From positions 1 through 16,870 of the forward strand of contig JBIKWN010000055.1 in NCBI GenBank assembly GCA_044356295.1: DNA of 16,870 nt. Reading direction: 5' to 3'. This DNA comes from Bdellovibrionota bacterium (lineage in GTDB: Bacteria > Bdellovibrionota_C > UBA2361 > JBIKWN01). Both the position numbers and the translations under genes were made by a program. Within the stretch, counting starts at the first letter, position 1; the number at the start of each line of letters is the position of its first letter. Positions 1 through 15,823 of the stretch are shown here, in pieces. Under the pieces are notes generated by a model. That model saw only the letters and a list, made by a program, of their open reading frames with translations. It was not told where the DNA came from and did not search any database.

Positions 1-28
1 TTCGCGACCTTCGCGTTACAAAAAAGAA

Positions 29-811
29 TTAATGCGCAGCACCCATACTAACCTGATACATCTCTTCCATAAGAGGAATATTTCGACGCCAGTTAGGATC
101 CATTTTATCCCAAAGGATTTCAGTAGGCTGCTCTTGAACATGTAGCTCTTGAATCTTTGCTTGAGTAACAATCAGATCTGCTTTTACATCCCAAGGTTGA
201 AGAGGAAATGCTTCGGGTGTTACCTGTGTATCATGAACAATAACCGCAACAGGAGTCTTAACAGAAGTAAGTCCCATTTTTTGCCACATGATCCATTCAG
301 AATCAAACCATCCACAACCTTTTCCACCACGGCCACCGTGAGCGCTACTTACAAAAAGCGCACCAGTAATCATAAAATCAATATTCCCAGCAGCTCTCAC
401 TGCATCAAGTGTAGTAAGAGGTTTTCCAAAACGCTCAAACCCATCAAGTGTTGCAGAGAATTCTTCTTGTCCGGCGGGAACCATATCTCGAGTTAATAAA
501 AGAGCCCCACGACGAATGCCGTGAGTTGTCATAACGACTTCTTTATTTTGTTCAATGGCTCGTTGTCTTAATAATTCAGTACTTCTGTCAGGAGTGATAA
601 AGACACGTTTTGAATTGATCCATGTAGGGTGATTACAAAGAAGTTCAGTAGCTTTTTCAAAGCCAATAAAATTAGGAATAAATTCTGCAAGATCGAGATG
701 AAATACAGCATCAGGTATTAAAAGATTTTTTTCAATTAATGTCTTTGCAACATGCTCGCGAATAACATGTTTTGCACTATCTACATCATCAGTTGCTCTT
801 ATAAATGCCAC
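29..811 (-). CDS. 5-formyltetrahydrofolate cyclo-ligase family protein (MTHFS/MTHFSD-like), paralogue 1
   Basis: 260-aa ORF, GTG start preceded by GAAGGA. Family motifs IPNFIG, VFITPD, DFMITGALFVS..GRGGKGCGWFDSEW (GxRxGKGxGxxD-like), VIVHDTQV and DVKADLIVT. Confidence 0.85.
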   Translation of the reverse strand: MAFIRATDDVDSAKHVIREHVAKTLIEKNLLIPDAVFHLDLAEFIPNFIGFEKATELLCNHPTWINSKRVFITPDRSTELLRQRAIEQNKEVVMTTHGIRRGALLLTRDMVPAGQEEFSATLDGFERFGKPLTTLDAVRAAGNIDFMITGALFVSSAHGGRGGKGCGWFDSEWIMWQKMGLTSVKTPVAVIVHDTQVTPEAFPLQPWDVKADLIVTQAKIQELHVQEQPTEILWDKMDPNWRRNIPLMEEMYQVSMGAAH

Positions 812-840
812 TTTTGAAATCCTTCAAAAATAAATAAAAA

Positions 841-1605
841 TTAAACAGCTTTTTTAGTTAGCTTTGCTCTTAGTTCATTTAAGAATGGTACATCTCTGTA
901 TTGGTCTGCCTGGACTAAGTCCCACGCAACACCTGTTGGTTGTGGATATGGTGTATGAGTTTCGATAATTTCATTTGGAGTAACTATCCAGTGAAGCGCT
1001 GAGTCATGCTCAAGCATAATAAGCTTTTCATTCTCAACAACTTGTACATCATGAACAGTAGTAACAATCGGGGCATGTTCCGGAATAGTGCCAACTTCTC
1101 TAAAAATCCCAAGCTCTAAATCAGCAAATCCACCACCTTTACCGGTTCGTCCACCTTCTCGAGTCACTGCAACACACCCAACAACGCAAACATCCATAGG
1201 GAGCATTTCGTCGAACTGAACGCGTTTACCATGTTTGAGCGCACCTGATGAGACTGCAGCTTCTTCGAAAGATACCCCGTTTTTTTTGAGTTCTTCAGGA
1301 TCTAGGAGTAAAAAAGGAAAATCTTGAACTAGTTCAGGTACCGGTGTGTAAACTAACTTACCTTCTTGCAGCGCTTTAAGCCGGACAGGTATTTGAGGAG
1401 CGTCAGGATTACACTTAACAACTTTAGCGCTCTTCCAAAAAGGAAGCGTTGCAAGTTTTTCAGCGGCGGTATGGGCACCAAAAAAGTTGGGTATAGCGCT
1501 CCAAATCGGCTCTATTCCAGCTTTTGAGGTTTCTAGAGCAGACCAAACTTCTCTTCGAAGGGTATCTTTATCGGTATTTCTTCCTTTCCATCGCTCATTT
1601 GTCAT
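841..1605 (-). CDS. 5-formyltetrahydrofolate cyclo-ligase family protein (MTHFSD-like), paralogue 2
   Basis: Motifs KDTLRREVW, IPNFFGA, VKCNPDAPQ, DVCVVGCVAV, GGRTGKGGGFADLE, TTVHDVQV and HDSALHWIVTP. Start moved from 1650 (TTG) to ATG 1605 (MTNERW) because GAGGA lies just upstream of it. Confidence 0.9.
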   Translation of the reverse strand: MTNERWKGRNTDKDTLRREVWSALETSKAGIEPIWSAIPNFFGAHTAAEKLATLPFWKSAKVVKCNPDAPQIPVRLKALQEGKLVYTPVPELVQDFPFLLLDPEELKKNGVSFEEAAVSSGALKHGKRVQFDEMLPMDVCVVGCVAVTREGGRTGKGGGFADLELGIFREVGTIPEHAPIVTTVHDVQVVENEKLIMLEHDSALHWIVTPNEIIETHTPYPQPTGVAWDLVQADQYRDVPFLNELRAKLTKKAV

Positions 1606-1732
1606 GTGCTTTCCTCGATTTTTATATACAGCAGCGTAAGAGTAGCACAATCGAGAACGCTACCCAAAAGGAGATAGAAAGAAATTATTTGGGTAAAAAC
1701 AAGAGAATTATCCGAATAGTGCCCTCGAGAAC

Positions 1733-1760
1733 TTGACTAGCTAGGTTAAGAAAATAAACT
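1733..1760 (+). promoter_or_regulatory. Putative sigma70-type promoter for the GCH II-like/SIS/QueD-like operon
   Basis: TTGACT (1733-1738), 16-nt spacer, TAAACT (1755-1760), 30 nt upstream of ATG 1791 in the divergent intergenic region. Confidence 0.4.
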
Positions 1761-1790
1761 AGGTTTGATTTTCTCTAACTTATTAAAAAA

Positions 1791-4001
1791 ATGCAGACAT
1801 CTTTTAATACTCTTACTTCTTCAGAGGTATATCGCCTTTCTTTTCCTAATAAAGACAATAACTTACCGGATCTTACCGGTTCAGCAGGTGGGTACTTTAA
1901 AGATTGGTATAAATCATCAGTAGAACAAAAATCTCCTAAATTAACTCATGAACAACAACATCTTGTTGCTACAGAGCTCTGTGTTTCAATCGTTGAGCTA
2001 CTACGTGCTAAGGGCATTGAGGCGTATATCTCTCTTGTTCCTGTGCGTACTGCTTTTTCGAAAGATCTCTTTGATGTGCGACCTATGGTCATTATAGATC
2101 CTAAGCGTGGTGAACATCATTATAACATGCAAGCAAAGAAAGTTTGGGAAGACGGTAATACTTTCATTTCTGTCGATCCACTATCCTTTGTTCGTGATTC
2201 TGGTGCAAAAATTCGCTCCCAGAGTTACAAAAGTCCATTACGTGTAGCTACAATACCAGCAAGAGTATTAATCGATCGAGAATTTGGCGATGAATCGCTT
2301 CCATTAGAAGTTTATGAACTCCATACGAAAAAACTTACGAAATCAAAGGAAGATGGAAGTGCAGTTGAGGTAAATTCACGATATGGATATCTATCATCGG
2401 ATGTTGTTTATCCTCCATTTCAAGCCAAAGGAGATATTGGTAAATTAAATAGCTTTTTAACTGACCCAGAATTTGCCTCAAAGATTTCCCCCTGGGGTGC
2501 CGAGACTCTTTTAAATCAACGACCGATATCAGGTACAACTCAATTTGATGCTGTTTCTGAATTTGAGTTCGAAGGTAAAACTTGGTTTAAATATCTATTT
2601 CATGACACTCAAACTAAAGAACATACGTTTGCCCTCGTTAGGGGTGATATTGCCTCAAATAAAGATGTTTATACTCGGGTACACTCTTCATGTGTTACTA
2701 GTGAAACTTTAGGAGCGCTTGATTGTGATTGTAGAGATCAGTTGCGAAGAGCAATGGAGATCATTAATGAAAAAGATTCCGGAGTAATCTTTTACTGCGT
2801 TCAAGAAGGTAGAGGGGCTGGATATGCACCTAAAGGAAGAGATAGAAGTGCTGTGCAAGCGACAGGACATCAAGTAGACGATCTGTATGAAACCTATGAT
2901 AAGATGGGATTAAAAGGAGATTTAAGAGATTACCGCGGCGTTAAAGATATTCTTCATATGTTTGGTTTTGATAACTCTCCAGATAGCCCATCTTTAACAC
3001 TTATTTCGAATAATCAAACAAAACTTGCTGCACTTGCTCAAATGGGCGTAAATGTTAGTGGTCTTCATAAAGTTCCTAAGATGAGAGCTAACCCTTATAA
3101 TACAGATTATCTTGGGGCAAAGAAGTCTAATGCAGATCATGACGTTGAGCATTATGGTGATATCGGTATTACCGTAGAATTGCCTCCTATGATGACTATC
3201 CCTGCTGGCGTAGCGAATACTCATAGTGTCTCTTTTGATTTAATCGCCCAATATTCTTTACCTACGACGACATATCCTGGTCGTACAGTGATGAGCAAAG
3301 AAGAATATCAAGCACTTCTTTTAGAAGTACAAGAGAGAGGAAGTCCAGAGCTTTACAAATCGATTTTAGATGTTGAGGAATTAAATTGCTCACGTGTAGC
3401 GGTAAAACGATCAAGAGATCTTCTTAACCGTCATCGTGATACCCATGGTGTAGATTCGATCTATTCTGCTTTAGCTACAGCTGACTGGCAGTCTTTAAAA
3501 ATCATAGAAGACAAAGATTACAAAAGAACATACGCAGTGCTTGAGTACGGAGATATTAGCGAAGATATCAACCCAATGGTGTACTGCCATTTTGAATCAC
3601 TCGATGCTCGAATCTTTATTGATCCTGAAAGCAGAAAGACATATCGCCAAGCATGGAAGCAAATTATACAAAATGGACATGGCTATATGATCGTAGCTAT
3701 TAATGATGGACAAGGATCGACTATCAATTCTGAAACCATAATTCAGATGAGTCATTTAAAGGAAAAAATGGGACTTTCTCCTTATGATACTTCTCGTTCG
3801 CAAGTGGTCTTCGAAAAGACTCGACAAGAGTGCTTGCAAACTTCAGCCCATATAGCCCAAGCATTCGGATTGGGGGCTCGAGAGTTACAACTACTCGTTT
3901 CAGAAGGTCAAGATCCTGAAGCCAGTGCTTCGATATTTGAAGATATAGGTCTTACAGTTTCATCAATGACTAAAGTTGAGGATTTGGTCGATGTGTCGTG
4001 A
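1791..4001 (+). CDS. Non-canonical multidomain GTP cyclohydrolase II (RibA-like): unknown N-terminal region, GCH II domain, degenerate C-terminal GCH II-like domain
   Basis: RVHSSC(301)-x10-C(312)DC(314) Zn motif, QEGRG, DLRDY, ISNNQTK and NTDYLGAKKSNADH match RibA motifs (RVHSEC..RCDC, QEGR, DxRD, TNNPxK, YLxTK..GH). The C-terminal region repeats the scaffold (AVLEYGDI..PMVYCHFES..QAWKQI..GYMIVAINDGQG) without the Zn cysteines. Confidence 0.85.
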   Translation: MQTSFNTLTSSEVYRLSFPNKDNNLPDLTGSAGGYFKDWYKSSVEQKSPKLTHEQQHLVATELCVSIVELLRAKGIEAYISLVPVRTAFSKDLFDVRPMVIIDPKRGEHHYNMQAKKVWEDGNTFISVDPLSFVRDSGAKIRSQSYKSPLRVATIPARVLIDREFGDESLPLEVYELHTKKLTKSKEDGSAVEVNSRYGYLSSDVVYPPFQAKGDIGKLNSFLTDPEFASKISPWGAETLLNQRPISGTTQFDAVSEFEFEGKTWFKYLFHDTQTKEHTFALVRGDIASNKDVYTRVHSSCVTSETLGALDCDCRDQLRRAMEIINEKDSGVIFYCVQEGRGAGYAPKGRDRSAVQATGHQVDDLYETYDKMGLKGDLRDYRGVKDILHMFGFDNSPDSPSLTLISNNQTKLAALAQMGVNVSGLHKVPKMRANPYNTDYLGAKKSNADHDVEHYGDIGITVELPPMMTIPAGVANTHSVSFDLIAQYSLPTTTYPGRTVMSKEEYQALLLEVQERGSPELYKSILDVEELNCSRVAVKRSRDLLNRHRDTHGVDSIYSALATADWQSLKIIEDKDYKRTYAVLEYGDISEDINPMVYCHFESLDARIFIDPESRKTYRQAWKQIIQNGHGYMIVAINDGQGSTINSETIIQMSHLKEKMGLSPYDTSRSQVVFEKTRQECLQTSAHIAQAFGLGARELQLLVSEGQDPEASASIFEDIGLTVSSMTKVEDLVDVS

Positions 4002-4002
4002 T

Positions 4003-5142
4003 ATGGCAAATCTTAGCGGTGATCACGCACTTGCATGGCGTGGGCTTTCAGCAGATCCAAAACTGCGTACCCTTAGTAATCAAGATCCACTAGGGCATGA
4101 ACTTATGCGCACTCGAATTGATGCGTTGCCTGAGTTATTGAGTTCATACCGAGATCAGGATTCATCACTTTCGGTTTTATCTGCTGGTACTATTGAGATA
4201 GTAGGTGTTGGGACATCTCAAGCTCATTCAGAATTTCTTTCATATTTATTAGAGAAGTATGTTCGCAGAGCATCAAAGGTGATTGATCCACTAGAGATCA
4301 TGCAACATGCTCATGGGGAAGTTTCGAAGGTAAGAGATAATCTCGTAGTATTTTCACAAGGATTATCACCCAATACATATGCTTCAATCGCTGCGTTAAG
4401 CACTGCAAGAAAAGGAATTCTTTTCACTGCTGCTTCTCAAGAAGACGTATCACCAGAGTCTGAAAAAGCAAAAATACTAGAACAAATTTCAAAAAGTGGC
4501 ATTGAAACAGTTCTTTTCCCAATAGCAAACGAATACGAATTGCTGCCTCGATTTATTGGCCCGCTTCTTGGATTCGTAGCTTGTTATAAATTTGTTAAGG
4601 AAGGGCTTTGCAACGAACAAACAAATGAACTTCGCTCACTAGATCTAGATAATTTTTTTAGTAGTTCTAGGAACTGCGCTGAAAAGATACGTGAACAATT
4701 ATCTGATGTTGATTTCGATAAAGCTCCAATCCATCTCGTATCAACGGTACCGTTCCACCGAACAGCATTTAATCTACAAGAAAAGATTCGTGAATGTTTG
4801 CTTCCAGCTGGTGGAGTTTTTCTTTCAAGTATAACGGGATATGATCATGGGCGATTCCAACATAATCTTGTCAATAATGGTGTTGAATTTATTCTTACGA
4901 GAGTTGAACGAGATGGGGTTGAAGGAGAGCTTGTTGAAAATAGACATACCCAATCTAAACAGGCTGGTCTAAATACAATTACAATTGAATCACCATATTC
5001 ACGTGATATTTCAGTAATGTGGTTTGAAATGGTATTTAATTACTTGATGCTTGATCTTGTTAAAGAAAGACAGATGAACTTAGTTGAGTGGCCTGGAAAA
5101 GAGCTTGAGGCTCTTGGTAATTATAGATTAACAGGCCTATAA
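4003..5142 (+). CDS. Double-SIS-domain sugar-phosphate isomerase/deglycase (GlmS C-terminal/FrlB/AgaS-like)
   Basis: IEIVGVGTSQAH (GxGTS), LVVFSQGLSPN (ISQSGET-like), EKIRE (GlmS KLKE-like) and YDHGRF (HGP-like). No glutaminase domain. ATG 4003 lies 1 nt after the upstream TGA; ATG 3991 and TTG 3976 are alternative starts. Confidence 0.8.
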   Translation: MANLSGDHALAWRGLSADPKLRTLSNQDPLGHELMRTRIDALPELLSSYRDQDSSLSVLSAGTIEIVGVGTSQAHSEFLSYLLEKYVRRASKVIDPLEIMQHAHGEVSKVRDNLVVFSQGLSPNTYASIAALSTARKGILFTAASQEDVSPESEKAKILEQISKSGIETVLFPIANEYELLPRFIGPLLGFVACYKFVKEGLCNEQTNELRSLDLDNFFSSSRNCAEKIREQLSDVDFDKAPIHLVSTVPFHRTAFNLQEKIRECLLPAGGVFLSSITGYDHGRFQHNLVNNGVEFILTRVERDGVEGELVENRHTQSKQAGLNTITIESPYSRDISVMWFEMVFNYLMLDLVKERQMNLVEWPGKELEALGNYRLTGL

Positions 5143-5150
5143 GATTTTTC

Positions 5151-6065
5151 ATGAGTCAGTCAATTTATATCAATAGAGTAACAGTTATTGACTGTGCAAG
5201 GTTGAATCCTGAAAGTGGTGAATTTGTAGGAGATAGTTTTAATCTTCATACACTAATTAGTGGGGATGCAAACAGTAAAGAACAAGTCGTAGTAGATTTT
5301 TCATCTGGTAAAAAATTAATCAAATCAGCCATAGATGGCCATGTATTTCATCAAGAAAGTTCTGGTCTAGAAGATAACTCAAAAGAGAATGGTTACGACC
5401 ATAAAACGTGGATTCCAAGCGATCTTATAGATCACTATTCAGAGCAAGGTAGATATATAGAGCTCCAAGGACCTAAGGGCTTCCGAATGTCAGCACCTTC
5501 AAATGCAGTAAAGATTCTACCGCAAAAAGTTCTAGAAGATCTTGAAAGAGGTTCAACAGAAGAACTTCAGAAACATCTAAAGGGTTTTCTAGAGGCAACA
5601 ATTCCTGGATTTTCTTTTGAAGTATTTTTAGATCGAGTTCCCTATCTAGATTACGCTTCACATCTTTTTGGCGAAGTGTACAACACTGTAGGATTTCAGT
5701 ATCTCCATGGATTAAAACAATCAACCTCGTTTGGATGTCAAAATATATTACATGGTCACGGTTCTGTTGTTTCAAGTGATGACCAAGAAGCTGCGATACA
5801 GATTGCAAGGTATCTTGACGGTGCATATCTGTATGAAACTAACTCTAAAACGCCTCATTATGGAACTTTTGCCTATCAAACTCTCGATAGAGGAGCGTTT
5901 AACTTAAAGGTTTCAGAAGACCAGGCTGTAAAGTTAATCGATATTGGCGGCGAGCCTACCATAGAAAACCTCAGTCAACATGTCGCAGAGGCGTTGCAGA
6001 TCAGGACGCCATTTTTAATCTCTGAGGGATTACAGAAAGGCGCTCGTTATCATGGAAAAAGGTAA
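5151..6065 (+). CDS. Tandem T-fold QueD/6-pyruvoyl-tetrahydropterin synthase-like protein
   Basis: N-terminal half has VVVDFSSGKKLIK..GYDHK (PTPS DF..lK..lDH motif). C-terminal half has YLHGLK..GCQNILHGH (Zn His ligands plus catalytic Cys), PTIENL and ISEG. At 304 aa it is about twice the length of single-domain QueD. Confidence 0.85.
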   Translation: MSQSIYINRVTVIDCARLNPESGEFVGDSFNLHTLISGDANSKEQVVVDFSSGKKLIKSAIDGHVFHQESSGLEDNSKENGYDHKTWIPSDLIDHYSEQGRYIELQGPKGFRMSAPSNAVKILPQKVLEDLERGSTEELQKHLKGFLEATIPGFSFEVFLDRVPYLDYASHLFGEVYNTVGFQYLHGLKQSTSFGCQNILHGHGSVVSSDDQEAAIQIARYLDGAYLYETNSKTPHYGTFAYQTLDRGAFNLKVSEDQAVKLIDIGGEPTIENLSQHVAEALQIRTPFLISEGLQKGARYHGKR

Positions 6066-6070
6066 TTTAT

Positions 6071-6099
6071 TTGAGTAACCCTCCATCAAGTTTTATACT
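6071..6099 (+). promoter_or_regulatory. Putative internal sigma70 promoter for the LOG-deaminase gene
   Basis: TTGAGT (6071-6076), 17-nt spacer, TATACT (6094-6099), about 42 nt upstream of ATG 6142. Confidence 0.55.
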
Positions 6100-6141
6100 A
6101 TCGTATCGAAATTTTTCGGAAAATTGAGTGTAGTTTTTCTC

Positions 6142-8421
6142 ATGAATATCTCTACTGCAGGCGGATTACCACAATCAGAACACCCTTGCTTAGTAACAAG
6201 TTCATACTCGAATCCTAATTTTAAATTTCTTCAACGATATGTTACCGATTATCTTAATGGTTACTTCTTGCAAGGACTTGAAGATTATCGATTTGAGGAA
6301 CCACAAAGAATCATTAATTCATTTTCTGCTCAGTTCTGCCTTAAGGCAGCAGAAGAAATTGGTCATGAACCAGTAAGCTCACAGGAACTCAGAGTTGTTG
6401 CAAAAAAACTAGCTATTGATGTACTAAAACTTCAGTCGATGTTTCTTGTTGGTGCTACTGATGCAGCATTAGCAGTTTTTGGCACTGCTAGAGATCCACT
6501 TTGGGAGCAGTTTCCACCACTAAAGACTTTTACAGAAATTCTTGGAAAAGAAATTGCGTCTCGTATGTCTATTTCTTGCGGTGGTTTTGATACGGGTTCT
6601 TTAAAAGATCTATTATCCGCTTTTCTAAATGAACCTGATAGAAAAAGTCTCTATGCCATAATTTTAAATTTCAAAACTGATCTGTATCAACAGCACTCAC
6701 CAGAGCCACCTGTTGTTGCTGGTACAGAAGATTGGGAATTTCCGTTCGATTCAATCTATGACAGAACACCAACAATTATCTGTGCAGCTAACTTAATAGG
6801 AGAGCTGTTTAACCCTGGTACATGGGGTACCTTACAAGAATGGGGTGATTCATCACTTGGTAAAGTTAACAGTTCGATTAACCAAACTGTTTTTAGTCCA
6901 CGTTTTCAGGTTCCTCATCCAATTTTTTTACTTGATCCAAAAGTTGGTTCGACAACTTTTTACGAAGGAACCATCAAACAGTCAGCATTGTTTGGACATA
7001 TACAACCTGAACGTTCTGCAATGCTCATCGATAATTTGCTAATCATCCGAGAAGATAGTGTTTATAGAATTAAAAAAACAACAACTCCAGATGAATTATG
7101 TTTAGAAAAAATTTGTGATTTCGGATTTGAAAACGACCCACAAGCACTGACGCAGTATATGATTACGCTGATGGAACAAACCAAAGAGAAGCTAAAATCT
7201 GCTGGGGTTCTTTGGGATTTTTCAAAAGTTTCTGATCAGCTCAATCGATACAAGGAAAAGATTAAGGAATTAGAAAAACAGTTACCTGAGTTTCCCATCC
7301 TTAGAACCTCGGTAGATATAATTGAAAAATCTGAGATTCTTAATTTGATGAATGTGCATGAGCGTTTTCAACAAGATGGTTGGTCTATCGATCCCGTTGT
7401 ATATGCTTCCGAAGCTGCAAAAGGCTCGTCTTACCCTGGAAAACCTACTTCATTTGGAGCTGTATTTAAAGTTCAAACATATATAGATGGTAAAAAAGGT
7501 TCAATTATTTACCCAGTTGGTGCCAATATCGCTGAAAGTGGAAGGGATACAAATTGTGCCGAGCGAGTAGCTTACGGCAATTTACTTAGTTATTTGGATT
7601 GTATACTACCAGAAGGTACAACTTTCAAAATTGAAGGTGTACATATTCATCTAGATCAAAAAGCTGATTTTCGTTTTTCATGCTCTTGCCAAAATTGCCG
7701 TCAACTATTTCAAGATTTAGTTCAAAATGGGCAGATGGATCTTGATTCCACAATATCGTATCAAGCGGGCAATGGAACTGACATTTTATTTACTTCGATT
7801 GATAAGTTAAGACCATTAATTGATCCAACTCTTGATATAATCAATCAATCAGATAGGTTTATTCCTTCTTCGTTTGAATTTTTAGCAGCTGAAGATACAT
7901 GGACAGATACCGAAAAAGAATTAATCACACAAAGTATCAAAAGAGCAGTAAAATCAAACAATAATACAGGGATAGCTTCAGTGCTCCTTGATGGGACAAT
8001 TCTTTCTCGCTCCTTGAGTGATAATCAGTTTGGATTTGAATTGTTAAGACAAGAGTCAAAGGCGAAAGGTAATAATATTCATCTTGGATTTGTGTATGCA
8101 GTCAATCAAGAAAAGAATTCAGATGCTCTTCCAACATTTCCAGCAGATCAGCTTGATATCTTGCTAACGGCTTCTCAGATATCTGGATTTGATTCCTATG
8201 TATACGTTGTTCAGTCTGAACGTGGAGAGTATCAGGCGGGGTATCGAGTCAAAATCTCGGAACTATTTCCATTAGGGAAAGGTATGGGTGATTCCAAAGC
8301 AGGAGATGATCACTACCACCGCATGTCTTTGGATAGAATTTGGAACGGTGAGCAGTTCGATGGAAGTATTAGTGAGGAAACAGCCAATATGCTCTTTAGT
8401 GAGGCTCGGAAATTAAACTAA
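6142..8421 (+). CDS. Fusion of LOG-family (nucleotide phosphoribohydrolase-like) domain, cytidine-deaminase-like domain and a probable degenerate second deaminase-like domain
   Basis: LOG motifs AVFGTAR, ISCGG, FDSIYDR and NPGTWGTLQEW (PGGxGTxxE). Deaminase motifs SSYP..FGAV, GANI, NCAERVA and SCQNCRQ. C-terminal region ends ISELFPLG (ELLP-like) but has no Zn ligands. ATG 6142 preferred over TTG 6124. Confidence 0.75.
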   Translation: MNISTAGGLPQSEHPCLVTSSYSNPNFKFLQRYVTDYLNGYFLQGLEDYRFEEPQRIINSFSAQFCLKAAEEIGHEPVSSQELRVVAKKLAIDVLKLQSMFLVGATDAALAVFGTARDPLWEQFPPLKTFTEILGKEIASRMSISCGGFDTGSLKDLLSAFLNEPDRKSLYAIILNFKTDLYQQHSPEPPVVAGTEDWEFPFDSIYDRTPTIICAANLIGELFNPGTWGTLQEWGDSSLGKVNSSINQTVFSPRFQVPHPIFLLDPKVGSTTFYEGTIKQSALFGHIQPERSAMLIDNLLIIREDSVYRIKKTTTPDELCLEKICDFGFENDPQALTQYMITLMEQTKEKLKSAGVLWDFSKVSDQLNRYKEKIKELEKQLPEFPILRTSVDIIEKSEILNLMNVHERFQQDGWSIDPVVYASEAAKGSSYPGKPTSFGAVFKVQTYIDGKKGSIIYPVGANIAESGRDTNCAERVAYGNLLSYLDCILPEGTTFKIEGVHIHLDQKADFRFSCSCQNCRQLFQDLVQNGQMDLDSTISYQAGNGTDILFTSIDKLRPLIDPTLDIINQSDRFIPSSFEFLAAEDTWTDTEKELITQSIKRAVKSNNNTGIASVLLDGTILSRSLSDNQFGFELLRQESKAKGNNIHLGFVYAVNQEKNSDALPTFPADQLDILLTASQISGFDSYVYVVQSERGEYQAGYRVKISELFPLGKGMGDSKAGDDHYHRMSLDRIWNGEQFDGSISEETANMLFSEARKLN

Positions 8422-10529
8422 TCAGTAATCCAATCAGCAAGTGCGTGTAACTGCACTGTTGTTAGATGGAGCGCCATTCCCGCACGGCATCCAAATGCAT
8501 AAGAATGATAGTCGTGCCCATTCTTGGGGATGGATCGATTCGGATCAATAACATCAGAAACTATATAGATTGGGCTAAACGTTGCCGGCTCATGAATTGC
8601 ATGTAGATTATGTTCTTGAATTGCAGATGCTATTGGCAATCCTTCAACATCAATCATTCCTAAATGAACATTGGTATCTGCTAGCAGAGACTTAAATCCG
8701 ATATCTGTTTCGATTGCAGGACACGGCGCCCAGCCATGATCAGCATATTGAATAATTGCTTTATTAGTTGGCGGTTTTAGAGGAACTCGTATTTGTGAGC
8801 CAAGATTATAAGCAACAAATTTTCCAGTTGGAGTTACAAGATCTCCTTCCCCAATTTCAAATCTAGGAGTTTTGATGGCACCTGCCGTAGCGAGAAACTT
8901 TATTGTCTTACAAAGAGGAATTGGTGATTTTTTATTTGCTAGTTTTAAAAACTCTTCCACAAAAATACCGGCAGTATCACCGTACAGCCCAGCACCACCA
9001 ACGGATGGAATAAGAAGTTGATATACTTGCTTATCTTGTGGATTTTCTATCCATGCGGCAAAAGTTTTCCCTAACGTTGGAAGCGTTGTCATAGTTTTAT
9101 CGAGAATTAATCCCCGATTTTGAAGCCCACTAAGAATTGTCTCGGCACTTGTTGCAGGCAGAGCAATGACTTTTTTAATTGAAGTAATTGAGGCTGGTCT
9201 CGATAAGGTTGCTGCTTCGAGAGCTTTTTTTATCTCACTTCCTATTATTGAGTTAATAGGAGTCGTTCTGTAGTAGCTGTGTATGGCACTGATAGGAATT
9301 CGAGTATTTTTTTTGATGGTTTGTCCGTTGATGTCTTTCTTAGGACCATACAACAGAAGCGCTGTAGAATTTGAAAGAACTCGGTATTCGCCAGCTTGAG
9401 CTATACAAAAAATCAGACGCTTTTCGCCGGATGAGTCAGTAAATTTATACAGGGTCTTAGAAAAATCGCCGTATTGGCCACAAGTATCAATAGCAAGTAT
9501 CTCAGTGGCATTGCTTAAATATTTCTGAATTACTAGTGCTTCAGCTTCATGTTTCGTCCCATCTACGATAACAATTGGAATATGACCAAAAGCAGCTCTT
9601 TTTAAGATACTTTCTGCAAACCGAAATCTCGTATAGTCACGACCACCAACAAGAGAAGAAGCACCATGTGTAATTTCCTGGTCAAGTTGCTCGAGTATGG
9701 TGAGGTGTCGATCATCTTTTTCTAAGTGATCAATAGTATGCAAAGCGCAAACATTTGAAGAGAGAATACGAAAATCGATTAACCGAGATGCGTTTGGTAG
9801 GAAGCTACGAACAGTTGGAAGGTAATCTGGCTCGATTACCTTCGAGTCCATATATCGATTGAGCGAAGTAAAAAACTCTTCTTCCTCATTTTTGCTTTTT
9901 GGAGTGTAGTCAAGTGGAAGGTTTGATTCTGTAAGGAATCGATTAATAAGTTCAGGAAAAGTTTTATTAAAACGAATCTGAATAGTAATTCCATCTTGAG
10001 TATTACGAAAATGGAAAGCTTCAATGAGAAAAATAATTCTTGCTAGCTTGAAAAAACGCTTTTGATCACTGTTTGTTGTTGGTTCGTCTTGATAATGAGC
10101 AAGCGAATCTGGAATCAATCGTTCAATTATTCTTCTATTCTCATCTGAAAGAACAAATGGTGCATGTTCTGATAAAAGGCGTGAAAAAGCACTGATTGGA
10201 TTAGTTTTATCCTTTGCCTCGAGGGCGAGTTGTTCAATTTTTTTTGGCTCAAGACAGTATAGTCCTGCTTGGCAGACTCCAATAAAGTAATCTAATTGGC
10301 GGCTATATCCCCACTTCTCATTTTTTGTAATTTCAAAATTGTTAAGATTAGTTCCGATTGCGAGTGAACCAAAAGATTTTATTGAATCGTCTGGATAATA
10401 GTCATCTTTTTCAGGATTTAAAATTGAAAGTGCTTTTGAAATAAGAGGAGTTAATTCACGAGCCATACCATCGAGTAAGGTCTGGGCTCTAACCTTTCGT
10501 ATGACTTGATTGATAGAATCAGCTTTCAA
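8418..10529 (-). CDS. Large protein with uncharacterised N-terminus and C-terminal purine/uridine nucleoside phosphorylase-like domain
   Basis: 703-aa ORF (TTG start uncertain). C-terminal motifs GLYGD, IKFLATAGAI, IGEGDLVTP, PAIET, MIDVEGLPIA and IYIVSDV follow the PNP/UDP/MTAN order (GxAGxl, GDlv, vdmE, vSD). Confidence 0.6.
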   Translation of the reverse strand: MKADSINQVIRKVRAQTLLDGMARELTPLISKALSILNPEKDDYYPDDSIKSFGSLAIGTNLNNFEITKNEKWGYSRQLDYFIGVCQAGLYCLEPKKIEQLALEAKDKTNPISAFSRLLSEHAPFVLSDENRRIIERLIPDSLAHYQDEPTTNSDQKRFFKLARIIFLIEAFHFRNTQDGITIQIRFNKTFPELINRFLTESNLPLDYTPKSKNEEEEFFTSLNRYMDSKVIEPDYLPTVRSFLPNASRLIDFRILSSNVCALHTIDHLEKDDRHLTILEQLDQEITHGASSLVGGRDYTRFRFAESILKRAAFGHIPIVIVDGTKHEAEALVIQKYLSNATEILAIDTCGQYGDFSKTLYKFTDSSGEKRLIFCIAQAGEYRVLSNSTALLLYGPKKDINGQTIKKNTRIPISAIHSYYRTTPINSIIGSEIKKALEAATLSRPASITSIKKVIALPATSAETILSGLQNRGLILDKTMTTLPTLGKTFAAWIENPQDKQVYQLLIPSVGGAGLYGDTAGIFVEEFLKLANKKSPIPLCKTIKFLATAGAIKTPRFEIGEGDLVTPTGKFVAYNLGSQIRVPLKPPTNKAIIQYADHGWAPCPAIETDIGFKSLLADTNVHLGMIDVEGLPIASAIQEHNLHAIHEPATFSPIYIVSDVIDPNRSIPKNGHDYHSYAFGCRAGMALHLTTVQLHALADWITD

Positions 10530-10597: not shown

Positions 10598-11215
10598 CTA
10601 TTTCGCATCAATATTTGTAGCCCATAGAAACGTCGTCGTATTGTCACTACTATCTTCGATATGTGAAGCAAGAGTTTTTAAGTTAAAATTCTTAGCCAAC
10701 GCATTACTTCCAATGACTGCAGTCGTGGATGGTATTTCTTCATTCATTATACCCTGAGCTACTCTTGAAGGGTCGATAAATTCACCTTCTCCTACTATTA
10801 GTGTAAGACCAGAGAAGGACTTTTTAAGAGTCTTTTGACATTGGAAAAAGGCTTGCGGATGAGCCATAACATCTTGAATTTCTTCAAGATTCTTGTCTTT
10901 TCTCGAGAGTAGATTATGTTGAATTTTCAGAAGGTAGGTATCGACCACAAAAAATTCGTATCTTCCAAGACAATCAATCGTTTCTTGAACCAGTCCACCG
11001 AGCGAATTATGAATTGCAAAATGAGCAAAGCTAACTTTTTTTGCTTTCAGAGCTTCAAAGACATTTTTTGTAGTATAAAAATATTTAATTTCAAAATTTG
11101 TAAAACTTACTTCATTAAGCTTTGCTAAAACTGCTTCTTCATTAAAGCTTCCGGGTCCTCCCTGAATACCTATTGTGACAATAGAATCTTTAGGTAAATA
11201 AGATTCTAACTTCAT
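10598..11215 (-). CDS. Stand-alone prephenate dehydratase catalytic domain (no ACT domain)
   Basis: IQGGPGSFNEEA, AIHNSLGGLV, AHPQAFFQC, AVIGS and IEDSSDNTTTFL. The protein ends right after the N-x-T-x-F motif. ATGA overlap with the upstream pheA. Confidence 0.85.
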   Translation of the reverse strand: MKLESYLPKDSIVTIGIQGGPGSFNEEAVLAKLNEVSFTNFEIKYFYTTKNVFEALKAKKVSFAHFAIHNSLGGLVQETIDCLGRYEFFVVDTYLLKIQHNLLSRKDKNLEEIQDVMAHPQAFFQCQKTLKKSFSGLTLIVGEGEFIDPSRVAQGIMNEEIPSTTAVIGSNALAKNFNLKTLASHIEDSSDNTTTFLWATNIDAK

Positions 11216-12264
11216 AAGGAACTGTAACTACCCAAGATTTTGTAGGGGATGCTTCTTTGAGAAAGTTGGCTTAGTACTGATTTAGTATTTGAATCATTTT
11301 TATCTCCTTCAAACTCAAGAAGAAACGGAATGGTCGATCCGCCACGAGATGATAATGATTCAATCTTTAAAAGATTAATTTTATGTTCAGAAAAAAGATC
11401 TAACACGGCAGAGAGAGTTCCTGATGAATGATTCGTAGAGAAATAGAGCATTGTTTTGCTACCCTGTTTGGCAGCAGTTTTACTGACTTGTAAAAACCTT
11501 GCTGGTTCAAATAATTTATCGTCGGTTAAATCCTTGATAACGTGAAGATTATATACTTCTGCACATAAGATAGGTGCTATCACTCCGGTGGCGAGAGGTC
11601 TGTCCTGTCGTAACATGAGTGCAGCAGCAGCCGATTCATGGAAAGGATGAGCTTCAAGTTTCATCCGCTCCAAGAACGCAGACGAACGACTTAAAACTTC
11701 TGGATGCCCATAGACAATTTTAATTTCACGGTAGTTAGATTCAGGAAGAGTCATCAATGCGTAAGAGGGATTGATAGTAACATCAGCTACAACAAAAAGA
11801 TCTGAATCAAGAAGTAGAGAAAGTGATTTTTCAAGTCTTGAATCGCTTACGCGTTCAAATGGAACCATAGCACAATCGATAGTATTATTTTGAAGATGAT
11901 TGAATAGTTCCTCGTGAGATTCGTATGGGACGGGAATGATTGGTTGCTGAATTTTTCCAATCGCAGTTTCAATCAGACTTCCATGTACGCCAAAGAATCC
12001 GATAAGGTGCTGTGTGACTTCTTGTAGGCTCTTGCTTTCAGCTACAATAAGTTTCGAGAGCTTCTCTGAAAAGTCAGATGAAACAAGCCAGCGTGCATTT
12101 TTACGGGCATTTTCAAGGATTACTTGTTCTCTATTTGTATCAACAAGAGCTTCCTTAAGCCGGCGAGTACGAACTGCATATTCAAATCGTTTTCCAATAA
12201 GACGTAAAATTTCACTATCAATTGAATCTATTTCAGTTCTGATAATTTCAAGGTCTTTTGACAT
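11212..12264 (-). CDS. pheA: Chorismate mutase / prephenate dehydratase-like / ACT protein (P-protein); dehydratase domain degenerate
   Basis: AroQ-type mutase: IRTEIDSIDSEILRLIGKRF..D.NREQVI. PDT scaffold with divergent motifs (PFERVSDS, GHPEVLSRS, EPARF). ACT domain GTLSAVLDLF..KINLLKIES..KILGSY. AAGGA ribosome-binding site. Confidence 0.8.
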   Translation of the reverse strand: MSKDLEIIRTEIDSIDSEILRLIGKRFEYAVRTRRLKEALVDTNREQVILENARKNARWLVSSDFSEKLSKLIVAESKSLQEVTQHLIGFFGVHGSLIETAIGKIQQPIIPVPYESHEELFNHLQNNTIDCAMVPFERVSDSRLEKSLSLLLDSDLFVVADVTINPSYALMTLPESNYREIKIVYGHPEVLSRSSAFLERMKLEAHPFHESAAAALMLRQDRPLATGVIAPILCAEVYNLHVIKDLTDDKLFEPARFLQVSKTAAKQGSKTMLYFSTNHSSGTLSAVLDLFSEHKINLLKIESLSSRGGSTIPFLLEFEGDKNDSNTKSVLSQLSQRSIPYKILGSYSSL

Positions 12265-13275: not shown

Positions 13276-14541
13276 TTATTCACTAATTTTACTGTTTTTT
13301 TCTAATACCTCAAAGAAATCTGGATAGCTTTTTTTAACCACATCAGAGTCGTTAATAGCGACAAGTTTTAATGCTCTCAGTGCAGTAATTGCTGTTGCCA
13401 TGACAATACGGTGGTCGTTATAGGAATCCATGGGCACGTCAGGTTGTGATAATGTACCCCCAGTAATCTTGAGAGAATCATCTTGATGTGTGATTGAAAT
13501 TCCAAACTTTCTAAATTCTTTTATCAGAGCTTCGGCTCTATTTGACTCCTTATGAATGAGTCTAGATGTCCCACGAATAATACTGACTCCATCACATGCA
13601 GTCGCAAGAGAAACGAGCGGCGGAAATAAATCTGGACAATCAGTCGCATCGAACTCAAAAGGCATTAATGGTGATTGTGGTTTCTCGAGGCGGAGAGTGT
13701 TTTTATTGATCCACTCAATTTTTCCTCCTGTTGATTCAATAACATCAAGAATAGCTTTATCTGCTTGTAGTGAGTCTTTGCTTATTTGCGAAAGAACAAT
13801 ACTTCCAGTTGTAACTGCTGCAACCAATAGGAAACTTGCCGATGACCAGTCACCTTCAACTGTTAGGATTTGACCGGTTGGTTGTTGGTTCCCAGGAATA
13901 TCGAATTCGGAAAAGTCTTTGTTGTATTCAATATTGACTAAAAAGTTTTTTAAAGCCTTTAGGGTCATTTCGATATAGGGGCGACTTTTAAGGTTTTTAA
14001 TGATTAGTTTGGTATTTTCAGTTCTTCTTGGCAGAGCGATTAATAGCCCAGAGATTAGCTGTGAAGTAATCGAACCATCAATCGTAATAATATTTTCTTT
14101 AAAAGGTCCAGTAATGGTCAGAGGGGCAAACCCTCCATTTGAAGAAACAGATAATCCAGCACGAGAAAGTGTATCAACGACCATTTGCATAGTTCTTGAT
14201 AATAACGATCCAGTACCTGTAAGGGTGATTGGTTTTTCATAGAGTCCAGCTATCGCTGAAAAAATCCTAAAAGAAGTTCCGGATTCAGCACATTTTAAAA
14301 CACATGGAAAAACAGGATCATCTGGGATTATCTCGATGTTTCCATCCTTTCTTGTACGAGCCATTGCTCCAAGGCCTCTCGCAACTTCAAGAGATGCAAG
14401 TCCATCGTCACAGAGCGAAGGATTTTTTATAGTTGTAGCACTCGAGGCAATAGCAGCGAGAGCAACATAACGTTGCATCATACTTTTTGAGGCAGGAGCA
14501 GAAACCTGACCAATAAAGTTAGCGGGTTGAACTAATTTCAT
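13276..14541 (-). CDS. aroA: 3-phosphoshikimate 1-carboxyvinyltransferase (EPSP synthase)
   Basis: PASKSMMQR, ESGTSFR, TSQLISGLL, SRPYIEMT, EGDWSSA, DCPDLFP, HKESNR, NDHRIVM and KSYPDF. Start set to ATG 14541 (MKLVQP), which overlaps the upstream gene by 23 nt. Confidence 0.96.
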   Translation of the reverse strand: MKLVQPANFIGQVSAPASKSMMQRYVALAAIASSATTIKNPSLCDDGLASLEVARGLGAMARTRKDGNIEIIPDDPVFPCVLKCAESGTSFRIFSAIAGLYEKPITLTGTGSLLSRTMQMVVDTLSRAGLSVSSNGGFAPLTITGPFKENIITIDGSITSQLISGLLIALPRRTENTKLIIKNLKSRPYIEMTLKALKNFLVNIEYNKDFSEFDIPGNQQPTGQILTVEGDWSSASFLLVAAVTTGSIVLSQISKDSLQADKAILDVIESTGGKIEWINKNTLRLEKPQSPLMPFEFDATDCPDLFPPLVSLATACDGVSIIRGTSRLIHKESNRAEALIKEFRKFGISITHQDDSLKITGGTLSQPDVPMDSYNDHRIVMATAITALRALKLVAINDSDVVKKSYPDFFEVLEKNSKISE

Positions 14542-15823
14542 AGAGGATCTTTTCAGCAAGCTCTCGTGAAGAGCGTATATCACTTCGTATTATTATATCT
14601 GATGTTTCCGCATAACGCTTGAACCTTTCTTTTAAAAGTTCAGTCAAGGTTTCTTTGATAGGTTTGCCTTTTAGAAGTGGCCTATCTGTGGATTTACTAA
14701 GACGAGATTCTAGGGTATCGATTGAGCTCCAAAGCCAAAACGAAGTTCCATTGTTTTTCATATGAACTCTATTCTTTTCATTTAGAACTGCGCCTCCTCC
14801 ACATGCAATAAAGTCAGCATGAGATGATCTGATAATATTTTCTTCAAGTTTTCGAAAATATATCTCTCCTTGAGTGGCAAATATTTCATTTATACTCATA
14901 TGAGCCGCTTTTTCAATCTCTTGGTCTGTATCAAGTGTCGAATATCCAAGCGCCGCAAGTTCTTGAAGTACAGATGATTTACCAGACCCCATTAAGCCAA
15001 TTAAGTAAAAGCACCCTTTTGAATCTGTTTTTTTTGATTGTAGAAGGGAGTCTAATGACTGAATTTGCTGGTCGCTTAAATTCTTATCAGTAAAGAGTGA
15101 ATAGTTTTTTATTGCCTGACCGATAAGCCAATCAAGACCTGATGCAGTTTGAATCATTGCGTTTTTGGCGGCTTTAGTGACCTCTGATTCAGAGCGATAT
15201 GTCGCATCAAGAAGTACAGCATCTTTATGAAAGTAAAATCCAGTAGGCAAAGTAACATCTGGCGGTATTGTAGAGATAACAATTGAAGCCTGAGAAAATA
15301 AATTTTTTGCATCTTCAGAAGTAAACTCGATTGCATTCAATCGAGTTGTTCGTGCTATGTACCGAGATGGTATTTGTATCGAATCTAAGGCTTCTTTGCA
15401 TGCCCTTGCAGCTCCGCCATTACCAAGAATTACTGCTGACAGGTTTGCTGGATTAGAAATATCTATTTTCTTTGAAAGGGCACTAAGCACACCGAAAGTA
15501 TCGGTATTATATCCCTTCCAGAGAAAATTATTAGCAGAATCCTCATTTGTTTTTGTTTTAATAAAAGTATTTACTACCCCGGTTGATGCTGCATCAGCGT
15601 TTTTGCTGGTAGTCAGTGAGAAAAAATCTTCTTTAAACGGCGCAGTAATATTAAATCCTGAAATATCTAACTCGTTTGCAAGGCCTAGGGCTTCTTTGGC
15701 AGAATCTGCTGCAATTCTAGTATAAATATGATCGTTTAAATTATTTTCCTTAAAAGCAAAATTAAAAAGAATTGGACTTTTAGAGTATAGAATTGGATTT
15801 CCGGTGACAGCAAAAAGCTTCAT
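14519..15823 (-). CDS. aroE: Bifunctional shikimate dehydrogenase - shikimate kinase (AroE-AroK fusion)
   Basis: AroE motifs [26 protein letters not shown] and GNGGAARA. AroK motifs GLMGSGKSS (Walker A), [22 protein letters not shown] and RPLL. Confidence 0.93.

Follow-up and report, generated by a model that had tools for sequence, protein, structure and literature searches.

Which compound is made from GTP where genes for a GTP cyclohydrolase II (GCH II)-like enzyme, a phosphosugar isomerase, and a relative of QueD are packed together is the question raised by a 16,870-nucleotide stretch of DNA from a Bdellovibrionota bacterium (GenBank assembly GCA_044356295.1, contig JBIKWN010000055.1). 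The whole stretch, contig C54 of the genome designated G000 here, is referred to as the window. The synthesis of folate, biopterin, and queuosine passes through GTP cyclohydrolase I (GCH I), which is also a drug target; to our knowledge, only one bypass of it has been documented, by RibA and TrpF of Chlamydia. The original prediction, made from the window alone, was that the first two of three adjacent open reading frames (ORFs) mimic GCH I and supply the third. In our best reading, to which we assign a probability slightly below one half (about 0.48), the GCH I reaction is split among several proteins and the product is passed to the third enzyme, a "long QueD." All substrates and products in this reading are those we infer; the domain and fold identities, gene fusions, synteny, and gene content reported below are established.

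The three genes and their products

ORF1 (positions 1791..4001), ORF2 (4003..5142), and ORF3 (5151..6065) are all located on the plus strand. The TGA stop codon of ORF1 (3999-4001) is followed after 1 nucleotide by the ATG of ORF2 (4003), and 8 nucleotides separate ORF2 from ORF3, so that the close co-directional arrangement described originally is borne out by the coordinates. The stated lack of folE, ribD, ribE, and ribH in the window was also confirmed for the 13 ORFs scanned with Pfam and NCBIfam. Judged from sequence, the core of this group represents one version of a widespread and so far undescribed two-protein module consisting of a tandem GCH II paralogue lacking the equivalent of Escherichia coli Tyr105 ("Tyr-less") and a double-SIS isomerase. 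New in this locus are the partners, namely paralogues of the 5-formyltetrahydrofolate (5-formyl-THF) cyclo-ligase MTHFS and the long QueD, and translational packing with a QueD/PTPS-like enzyme was seen only here. No published description of the GCH II/SIS module or the long QueD was found; the supplementary tables of phage papers may list the latter.

The product of ORF1 (736 amino acids) matches the Pfam model GTP_cyclohydro2 (PF00925) at residues 267-424 with 117.7 bits (cut-off 23.3) and stays below the NCBIfam cut-offs for RibA (NF001591, 125.9 vs. 148; TIGR00505, 97.2 vs. 205.85). An N-terminal part of 240 amino acids precedes the GCH II catalytic domain (residues ~267-454), which is followed by a degenerate second GCH II-like domain common to ORF1 and tandem homologues of 495-596 amino acids. 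This second domain is visible only via the tandem homologues; compared with ORF1's own catalytic domain, it gave no significant BLAST match. The N-terminal 240 residues had no match in sequence or profile searches. A degenerate RibB domain was considered for this part and rejected, as no similarity was found and all structure matches in the Atlas had a TM-score <0.4. E. coli RibA (PDB 2bz0) shares with ORF1 the GCH II fold, the QEGRG and K motifs, and the zinc cysteine triad (C301, C312, and C314 of ORF1 align to C54, C65, and C67), but has neither the tandem second domain nor the N-terminal extension. Within 64 aligned GCH II-like family sequences, the three cysteines are retained in 64, 62, and 62 cases, and arginine fills the position equivalent to E. 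coli Tyr105 in 63. The residue following this arginine is methionine in the five Bdellovibrionota homologues displayed and serine in the window (R352/S353).

Tyr105 of GCH II acts in the release of formate. The GCH II SCO6655 of Streptomyces coelicolor, reportedly studied by Spoonamore and Bandarian in 2008, is said to carry methionine in place of this tyrosine and to stop at the N-formyl intermediate. Given that the Tyr105 equivalent is missing and that a formyl-handling partner seems always to be present (see below), ORF1 probably makes a product other than that of RibA. The assignment as a RibA-like enzyme thus holds for the GCH II domain and its zinc triad and fails for the RibA cut-offs, the tyrosine, and probably the product. 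In a second tandem GCH II-like gene of G000, only one of the three zinc cysteines is left. Immediately in front of this gene lies that of a 728-amino-acid membrane protein (both within L018, contig C71, 7421-11107), which contains CCG, 4Fe-4S, and nitrate-reductase-gamma-like domains and has a homologue encoded near the GCH II-like/SIS-like gene pair in genome G025 (L014 2275-4473).

The SIS domain of ORF2 (379 amino acids) was not detected by any Pfam or NCBIfam model at E up to 0.01. An AlphaFold model built on 13 family sequences reached a predicted local distance difference test (pLDDT) score of 88.1 and a predicted TM-score of 0.90. Foldseek matched it to the double-SIS isomerases NagB-II (7kqa/8eym), GlmS (3ooj/1mos), and BSU32610 of Bacillus subtilis (3eua), with E values from 5e-11 to 2e-8. 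Matches in the PDB with an E value of 0.001 or less numbered 231, and almost all of the best ones listed are double-SIS isomerases; tagatose-6-phosphate isomerases were also among the matches. Residues invariant in the 13 sequences include G68/G70/S72/H75, S118-Q119-G120, K261, E264, and H282-G283, and the family profile weakly aligns its G.GSS, SQ.G.S, and KxKE...HG stretches to NagB-II (3hba/8eol, E 0.003). The K..E...HG residues presumably correspond to K485, E488, and H504 of GlmS. According to the structural model, ORF2 is a double-SIS isomerase of the GlmS/NagB-II/FrlB type, as had been proposed. These enzymes perform amino-sugar phosphate chemistry including that of the Amadori and Heyns type, and ORF2 shares with them the fold and the three motifs. 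Since the family keeps motifs that align to NagB-II, an Amadori-type step is plausible, and ORF2 is a candidate Amadori isomerase. In contrast to GlmS, NagB-II, and FrlB, ORF2 is invisible to the Pfam SIS model, and its presumed substrate is a ribosylamino-pyrimidine nucleotide.

ORF3 (304 amino acids) scores borderline with the Pfam PTPS model (PF01242, 22.5 bits vs. 22.4, no single stretch passing alone) and far below the cut-off of TIGR03367 (24.7 vs. 89.25), whereas many members of its family bear a precomputed PF01242 match. The structural model (pLDDT 92.6) found its best Foldseek matches in PTPS and QueD (2a0s at 4e-5, 4ntm). It contains two T-fold modules, while the usual PTPS/QueD subunit has a single module of about 120-140 amino acids. 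Thirty family sequences share H186, C196-x4-H201-G-H203, D83-H84, E292, and a C-terminal SEGLxKG motif; the D83-H84 pair is situated in the N-terminal half and the zinc site in the C-terminal half. By residues and model, ORF3 would accordingly retain the PTPS/QueD catalytic set, split between the two modules, and the view of the third gene as QueD/PTPS-like is upheld for fold and catalytic residues. The family has in common with QueD/PTPS (COG0720; 4ntm, 2a0s) the T-fold, the zinc histidines, the catalytic cysteine ahead of HGH, and the Asp-His pair. It differs in its length of ~300 amino acids in two modules, in the cysteine spacing (C-x4-HGH vs. C-x3-HGH in QueD; PMC10516641), and in the coupling to GCH II-like/SIS-like genes instead of folE.

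The relatives of ORF3 point to its place in metabolism. A folE gene adjoins an ORF3-like gene in 6 of 57 metagenome loci (Pfam-confirmed for two), and locus L127 shows the order ORF3-like, radical-SAM QueE-like, FolE, unknown, methyltransferase, and QueC. Distant relatives occur in 62 phage records, 51 of them from Vibrio phages; the "queD" genes of Vibrio Straboviridae belong here and are found beside folE, queC, queF, and a TGT-like gene. In Vibrio phage 6E35.1a (L171, 6498-11760), the gene order is dCMP deaminase, long "queD" (so annotated), folE, TGT-like, queF, and queC, and the 15 kb shown contain neither queE nor an ordinary queD. Because relatives lie next to folE and take the QueD position in phage preQ0 clusters, the ORF3 family is expected to work downstream of GCH I, with the GCH I product as substrate. 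In the window, ORF1 and ORF2 occupy the place of folE beside ORF3. Two phage-like contigs carry a gene for a small protein with an Acb2/Tad1-hairpin domain (an anti-defence sponge family) just downstream of the long-QueD gene (L114 8951-9259, L118 2552-2875); in L114, it stands between the long-QueD gene and an ordinary PTPS gene.

The GCH II-like/SIS-like pair and its formyl-handling partners

With an E value limit of 0.001, the ORF2-family profile retrieved 619 cluster representatives, 363 of which also passed a limit of 1e-30. For the survey of the gene pair, the best 80 of 117 genome loci were examined, which came from Verrucomicrobiota (including Opitutaceae and a metagenome-assembled genome of Akkermansia muciniphila), Myxococcota, Bdellovibrionota, Binatia, Spirochaetales, and others. 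In 59 of the 80 loci, the gene directly upstream of the SIS-like gene on the same strand encodes a tandem GCH II-like protein. Pfam scans of 20 longer ORF2-family members revealed a C-terminal creatininase domain in 9, an N-terminal GCH II region in 6, and no Pfam domain in 6. Fusions of GCH II with SIS, of SIS with creatininase, and of all three were seen, the last in a single chain of 930 amino acids (P0129). Because of the adjacency and the gene fusions, it is supported that both proteins share one pathway, in which they would act on a GTP-derived ribosylamino-pyrimidine. This part of the predicted GCH I mimicry is upheld and the Amadori step is plausible; a general replacement of folE is not supported (see below).

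Two genes on the minus strand upstream of ORF1 encode divergent members of the MTHFS family, 31% identical to each other: the paralogue at 841..1650 (269 amino acids; PF01812, 73.5 bits) and a second, more divergent one at 29..811 (260 amino acids; PF01812, 59.8 bits). Both fall well below the TIGR02727 cut-off of 84.9 (25.6 and 18.7, respectively), and a canonical MTHFS is encoded elsewhere in G000 (C82:1714-2265, 112 bits). Orthologues of the 841..1650 gene (52-70% identity) were found in 10 of 124 Bdellovibrionota genomes. An MTHFS-like paralogue adjoins the module in G000, G047, and G039 (58-61% identity), and in 7 of 11 loci from the phylum, the MTHFS-like gene has a tandem GCH II-like gene as its neighbour. 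A divergently transcribed gene for a Cof-type HAD phosphatase accompanies the MTHFS-like/GCH II-like genes in four loci (L174, L175, L180, and L181).

In other lineages, different enzymes take this position. A creatininase domain, mostly fused, is present in 39 of the 80 pair loci, and ORF2 relatives are thus joined to a domain of the ArfB/BrbF type; no creatininase was found in G000. An amidase gene (PF01425) follows the SIS gene in an Opitutales-type cluster of eight loci (3/3 representatives confirmed). BrbF of the creatininase family is a proven formamidase for 2-amino-5-formylamino-6-ribosylamino-pyrimidinone 5'-phosphate (PMC9478397). Three unrelated types of formyl- or amide-handling enzymes (creatininase, amidase, and MTHFS-like) therefore alternate beside the Tyr-less cyclohydrolase, which fits an ORF1-type product that keeps its formyl group. 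We infer that the formamido-pyrimidine is the substructure that MTHFS recognizes in 5-formyl-THF; the paralogue encoded at 841..1650 is, from its family and position, a candidate for the enzyme that handles the formyl group together with ORF1.

Fate of the classical genes and competing explanations

The gene content of the host was compared with that of the same-genus genome G002. The G000 assembly comprises 2.96 Mb in 128 contigs with 1.1% contamination. It has no match to the FolE, FolE2, or PTPS models, nor to FolE, QueD, and QueE of G002 in tblastn and phmmer searches, and retains FolB, FolK, FolP, an orphan QueC (C82:88795-89412), and two TGT-family genes. The second of these (C103:7878-8933) belongs to a frame of 660 amino acids; counterparts in G002 (667 amino acids) and G025 (735 amino acids) likewise exist beside an ordinary TGT of ~375 amino acids. 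In G002, a queD-folE-SDR-queE cluster (L100:4292-6776) is located between atpC and a gene for 120 amino acids. The regions on either side of it align within a single uninterrupted part of G000 contig C70, where ~1.1 kb without these genes (38603-39696) is found instead. The loss of queD-folE-SDR-queE in G000 is thus a deletion at that site, and an assembly gap as the cause of the missing folE is rejected for the ancestral position. Conversely, window positions 1-8417, which cover the two MTHFS-like genes and ORF1 to ORF4, have no counterpart in G002 beside the conserved aromatic amino-acid operon and constitute a strain-specific block. Within the genus, the classical cluster is present in G002 and the block in G000. 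As queD-folE-SDR-queE is deleted and folB, folK, folP, and queC are kept, the block may feed folate and/or 7-deazaguanine synthesis in G000. The expectation of a host without folE and with the downstream genes is therefore correct for FolE, FolE2, QueD, and the four retained genes, and fails for QueE.

In the preferred reading, ORF1 would open the imidazole ring of GTP, release pyrophosphate, and halt at the N-formyl intermediate 2-amino-5-formylamino-6-ribosylamino-4(3H)-pyrimidinone 5'-phosphate. A lineage-specific partner enzyme would handle the formyl group, and ORF2 would convert the ribosylamine to the 1-deoxy-ribulosylamine via an Amadori rearrangement. The free 5-amino group would then close spontaneously on the ketone to yield 7,8-dihydroneopterin 3'-phosphate, which ORF3 might convert in a QueD/PTPS-like manner to 6-carboxy-tetrahydropterin or another 6-substituted pterin. 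The overall reaction proposed is the same as that of GCH I (FolE, PF01227) and GCH IB (FolE2, PF02649), dihydroneopterin phosphate being the product in each case; there is no relation in sequence or fold, and the steps are distributed over two or three proteins. Since pyrophosphate is released in the ORF1 route, the product would be a monophosphate, unlike that of FolE and FolE2. The link of the module to an enzyme of the PTPS family adds a new and independent argument for a pterin as the product.

The closest precedent is that of Chlamydia, where RibA and TrpF give dihydroneopterin monophosphate from GTP (PMC4161248). The two systems would have in common a GCH II-type ring opening, a separate Amadori isomerase, downstream FolB, FolK, and FolP, and a host without FolE. 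They differ in the isomerase, which has a double-SIS fold here and a (beta-alpha)8 fold in TrpF, in the cyclohydrolase, which is a dedicated Tyr-less tandem paralogue here and the housekeeping RibA there, and in the formyl-handling partner attached here; moreover, FolE or FolE2 persists in most genomes that carry the pair. With archaeal ArfA/ArfB and with BrbF, the module would share the two-step design, a free formamido-pyrimidine nucleotide, and, in the creatininase-bearing lineages, deformylation by that family. Those enzymes (PMC9478397) lead to riboflavin without an isomerase, whereas the window has MTHFS-like paralogues and no creatininase.

Several observations weigh against the proposed role. 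The trio is not conserved, contrary to what was anticipated: ORF3-like genes were found in none of the 80 pair loci, GCH II-like/SIS-like genes in none of the 57 ORF3-family metagenome loci, and ORF3 itself in 1 of 124 Bdellovibrionota genomes, G000 only. The presumed anti-correlation with folE and folE2 is likewise contradicted. Among 50 genomes that carry the pair, FolE is present in 20 and FolE2 in 29 (one has both, two have neither), so that 48 possess at least one of them and the general role of the pair is not the replacement of GCH I; G047, G039, and G028 have FolE together with QueD, and G025 has FolE2 with QueD. GCH I is also commonly missing in this order, a loss that needs no such module. 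In 61 relatives, FolE was detected in 22, FolE2 in 8, and HPPK in 44, and HPPK without GCH I occurs in 20 genomes, namely G000 and 19 of 60 relatives. None of these 19 has an SIS-like gene and two have a tandem GCH II-like gene, so that the loss of FolE becomes a weaker argument for compensation. Searches of G000 with tblastn, phmmer, and TIGR04508 detected no QueE, and the deazapurine route would consequently be incomplete; such absences rest on an assembly that is 93.6% complete. In four genomes (G116, G024, G035, and G013; loci L175, L180, L181, and L182), an MTHFS-like gene is directly followed by the tandem GCH II-like gene and no SIS-like gene was found. MTHFS-type cyclization of the formamide would re-form GMP unless the sugar is altered first. 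Finally, no literature text was found on SCO6655, the reported precedent for what a Tyr-less GCH II would make. A replacement of FolE by the block for folate or queuosine in G000 is possible and is not required by the data.

The strongest competitor, which we consider rather unlikely, is that the module makes a GTP-derived compound other than a pterin in a small specialized-metabolite or signal pathway. ORF1 would then provide a formamido-pyrimidine nucleotide, ORF2 would isomerize or remove the sugar, and the MTHFS-like protein would re-close the ring with ATP, for example to a guanine carrying 1-deoxyribulose 5-phosphate, to be tailored by ORF3 and a deaminase-like ORF4. The coexistence of the pair with FolE or FolE2 argues for a product of its own, and the strain-specific nature of the block, the lineage-dependent partners (creatininase, amidase, MTHFS-like protein, and the HAD phosphatase of four loci), the cyclizing instead of hydrolytic chemistry of MTHFS, and a deaminase-like zinc motif in ORF4 are consistent with this. 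However, no enzyme of the PTPS/QueD family is known to act on anything other than pterins or closely related bicycles. ORF3 has the full PTPS catalytic set and relatives that adjoin folE, and an Amadori product with a free 5-amino group closes to a dihydropterin, which is what happens in GCH I and in the bypass of Chlamydia.

It is unlikely that a recent insertion has placed ORF3 next to a pair with which it has nothing in common, in which case ORF3 would be a phage-derived QueD relic, the pair would have the role it has in other genomes, and the tight spacing would result from compaction. Such an origin would agree with the occurrence of the trio nowhere else among the loci examined, with the phage records of distant ORF3 relatives, and with the lack of the block in the same-genus genome. 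It is opposed by the same-strand 8-nucleotide gap and by the lack of a terminator-like site between ORF2 and ORF3 in a promoter and terminator scan, which was uninformative on the whole (14 promoter-like sites vs. 30.2 in shuffled sequences, i.e. fewer than shuffled). The closest ORF3 relatives (38-44% identity) are, moreover, found in bacterial-looking contexts. A protein 80% identical to ORF2 and one 76% identical to ORF3 each derive from a single 4377-base contig with the same sources; this may be one and the same contig and suggests adjacency of the two genes in a second organism.

An alternative start of riboflavin synthesis, with GCH III-like opening by ORF1, subsequent deformylation of the ArfA/ArfB or BrbF kind, and the SIS protein as an accessory, appears very unlikely. 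BrbF deformylates the very intermediate expected from ORF1, the matching cyclohydrolase of Rhizobiales is still being sought (PMC9478397), and the Cof-type phosphatase beside the MTHFS-like/GCH II-like pair would suit this route. Nevertheless, G000 encodes a canonical RibBA (212 bits) and a second RibBA, lacks a detectable creatininase, and has no ribD, ribE, or ribH in the window, and the conserved isomerase and ORF3 would be left unexplained. Hardly credible is the most far-reaching proposal, in which the block, assembled from unrelated proteins, would replace all the early steps of preQ0 and folate synthesis, with the Tyr-less GCH II, the MTHFS-like, and the SIS proteins in place of GCH I, the two-module QueD in place of QueD, and ORF4 with its deaminase-like zinc motif in charge of the ammonia-releasing ring contraction of the radical-SAM enzyme QueE, so as to explain the QueC kept after the deletion of queD-folE-queE.

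Flanking genes and significance of the module

ORF4 (6142..8421, plus strand, about 760 amino acids, ATG at 6142 as the probable start) is co-directional with ORF3, 76 nucleotides downstream of it, and is possibly part of the ORF1-ORF3 block. It had no Pfam, NCBIfam, or PDB match, and a Pfam search at E up to 10 gave nothing relevant. Two homologues with 55-58% identity were found, none of them in same-genus genomes. Its C-A-E ... C-x-x-C motif resembles the zinc sites of cytidine deaminases; matches of ESM Atlas features to CMP/dCMP deaminase clusters were all <0.9 and serve as leads only. A function as a deaminase, based on this motif and these scores, was not upheld. ORF5 (8418-10529, minus strand, 703 amino acids, no family or PDB match) is convergent with ORF4, the two ends overlapping by 4 bases, and is the last gene of the aromatic amino-acid operon. 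Together with this operon it is found again in the genus, with 64% identity in G002 and 40% in G001, and the synteny between G002 and the window begins exactly at ORF5 and continues through the operon; ORF5 was therefore rejected as a member of the cluster.

The operon on the minus strand comprises, after ORF5, a prephenate dehydratase (PDT)-only gene, pheA, aroC, aroA, an aroE-aroK fusion, and the DAHP synthase gene. The PDT-only protein (10598-11215, 205 amino acids, no ACT domain) is encoded directly downstream of pheA (11212-12264), which has the full CM-PDT-ACT architecture; in its size and missing regulatory domain it resembles BacA-type non-aromatizing prephenate decarboxylases. The fusion (14519-15823, 434 amino acids) combines shikimate dehydrogenase and shikimate kinase. 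A second instance of the module beside aromatic amino-acid genes was observed in G047 (L012 3902-5281, 9678-11618), where MTHFS-like, SIS, and GCH II genes are located between a prephenate dehydrogenase-dehydratase fusion and a class I/II aminotransferase of 646 amino acids.

Besides the module itself, the window draws attention to two further families: the MTHFS paralogues, tied to a cyclohydrolase that would produce a formamido-pyrimidine, and the long QueD proteins, beside which some large deazaguanine clusters of Vibrio phages showed no other candidate for QueD. With the module joined to a QueD-type enzyme and folE and queD deleted from the host genome, the window is the cleanest test case so far. 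If the split GCH I reaction proposed here is true, it would be a second, independent bypass of GCH I that relies on another isomerase fold and occurs in several phyla (the 619 representatives of the ORF2 family), and genomes with a "missing folE" would have to be read differently.

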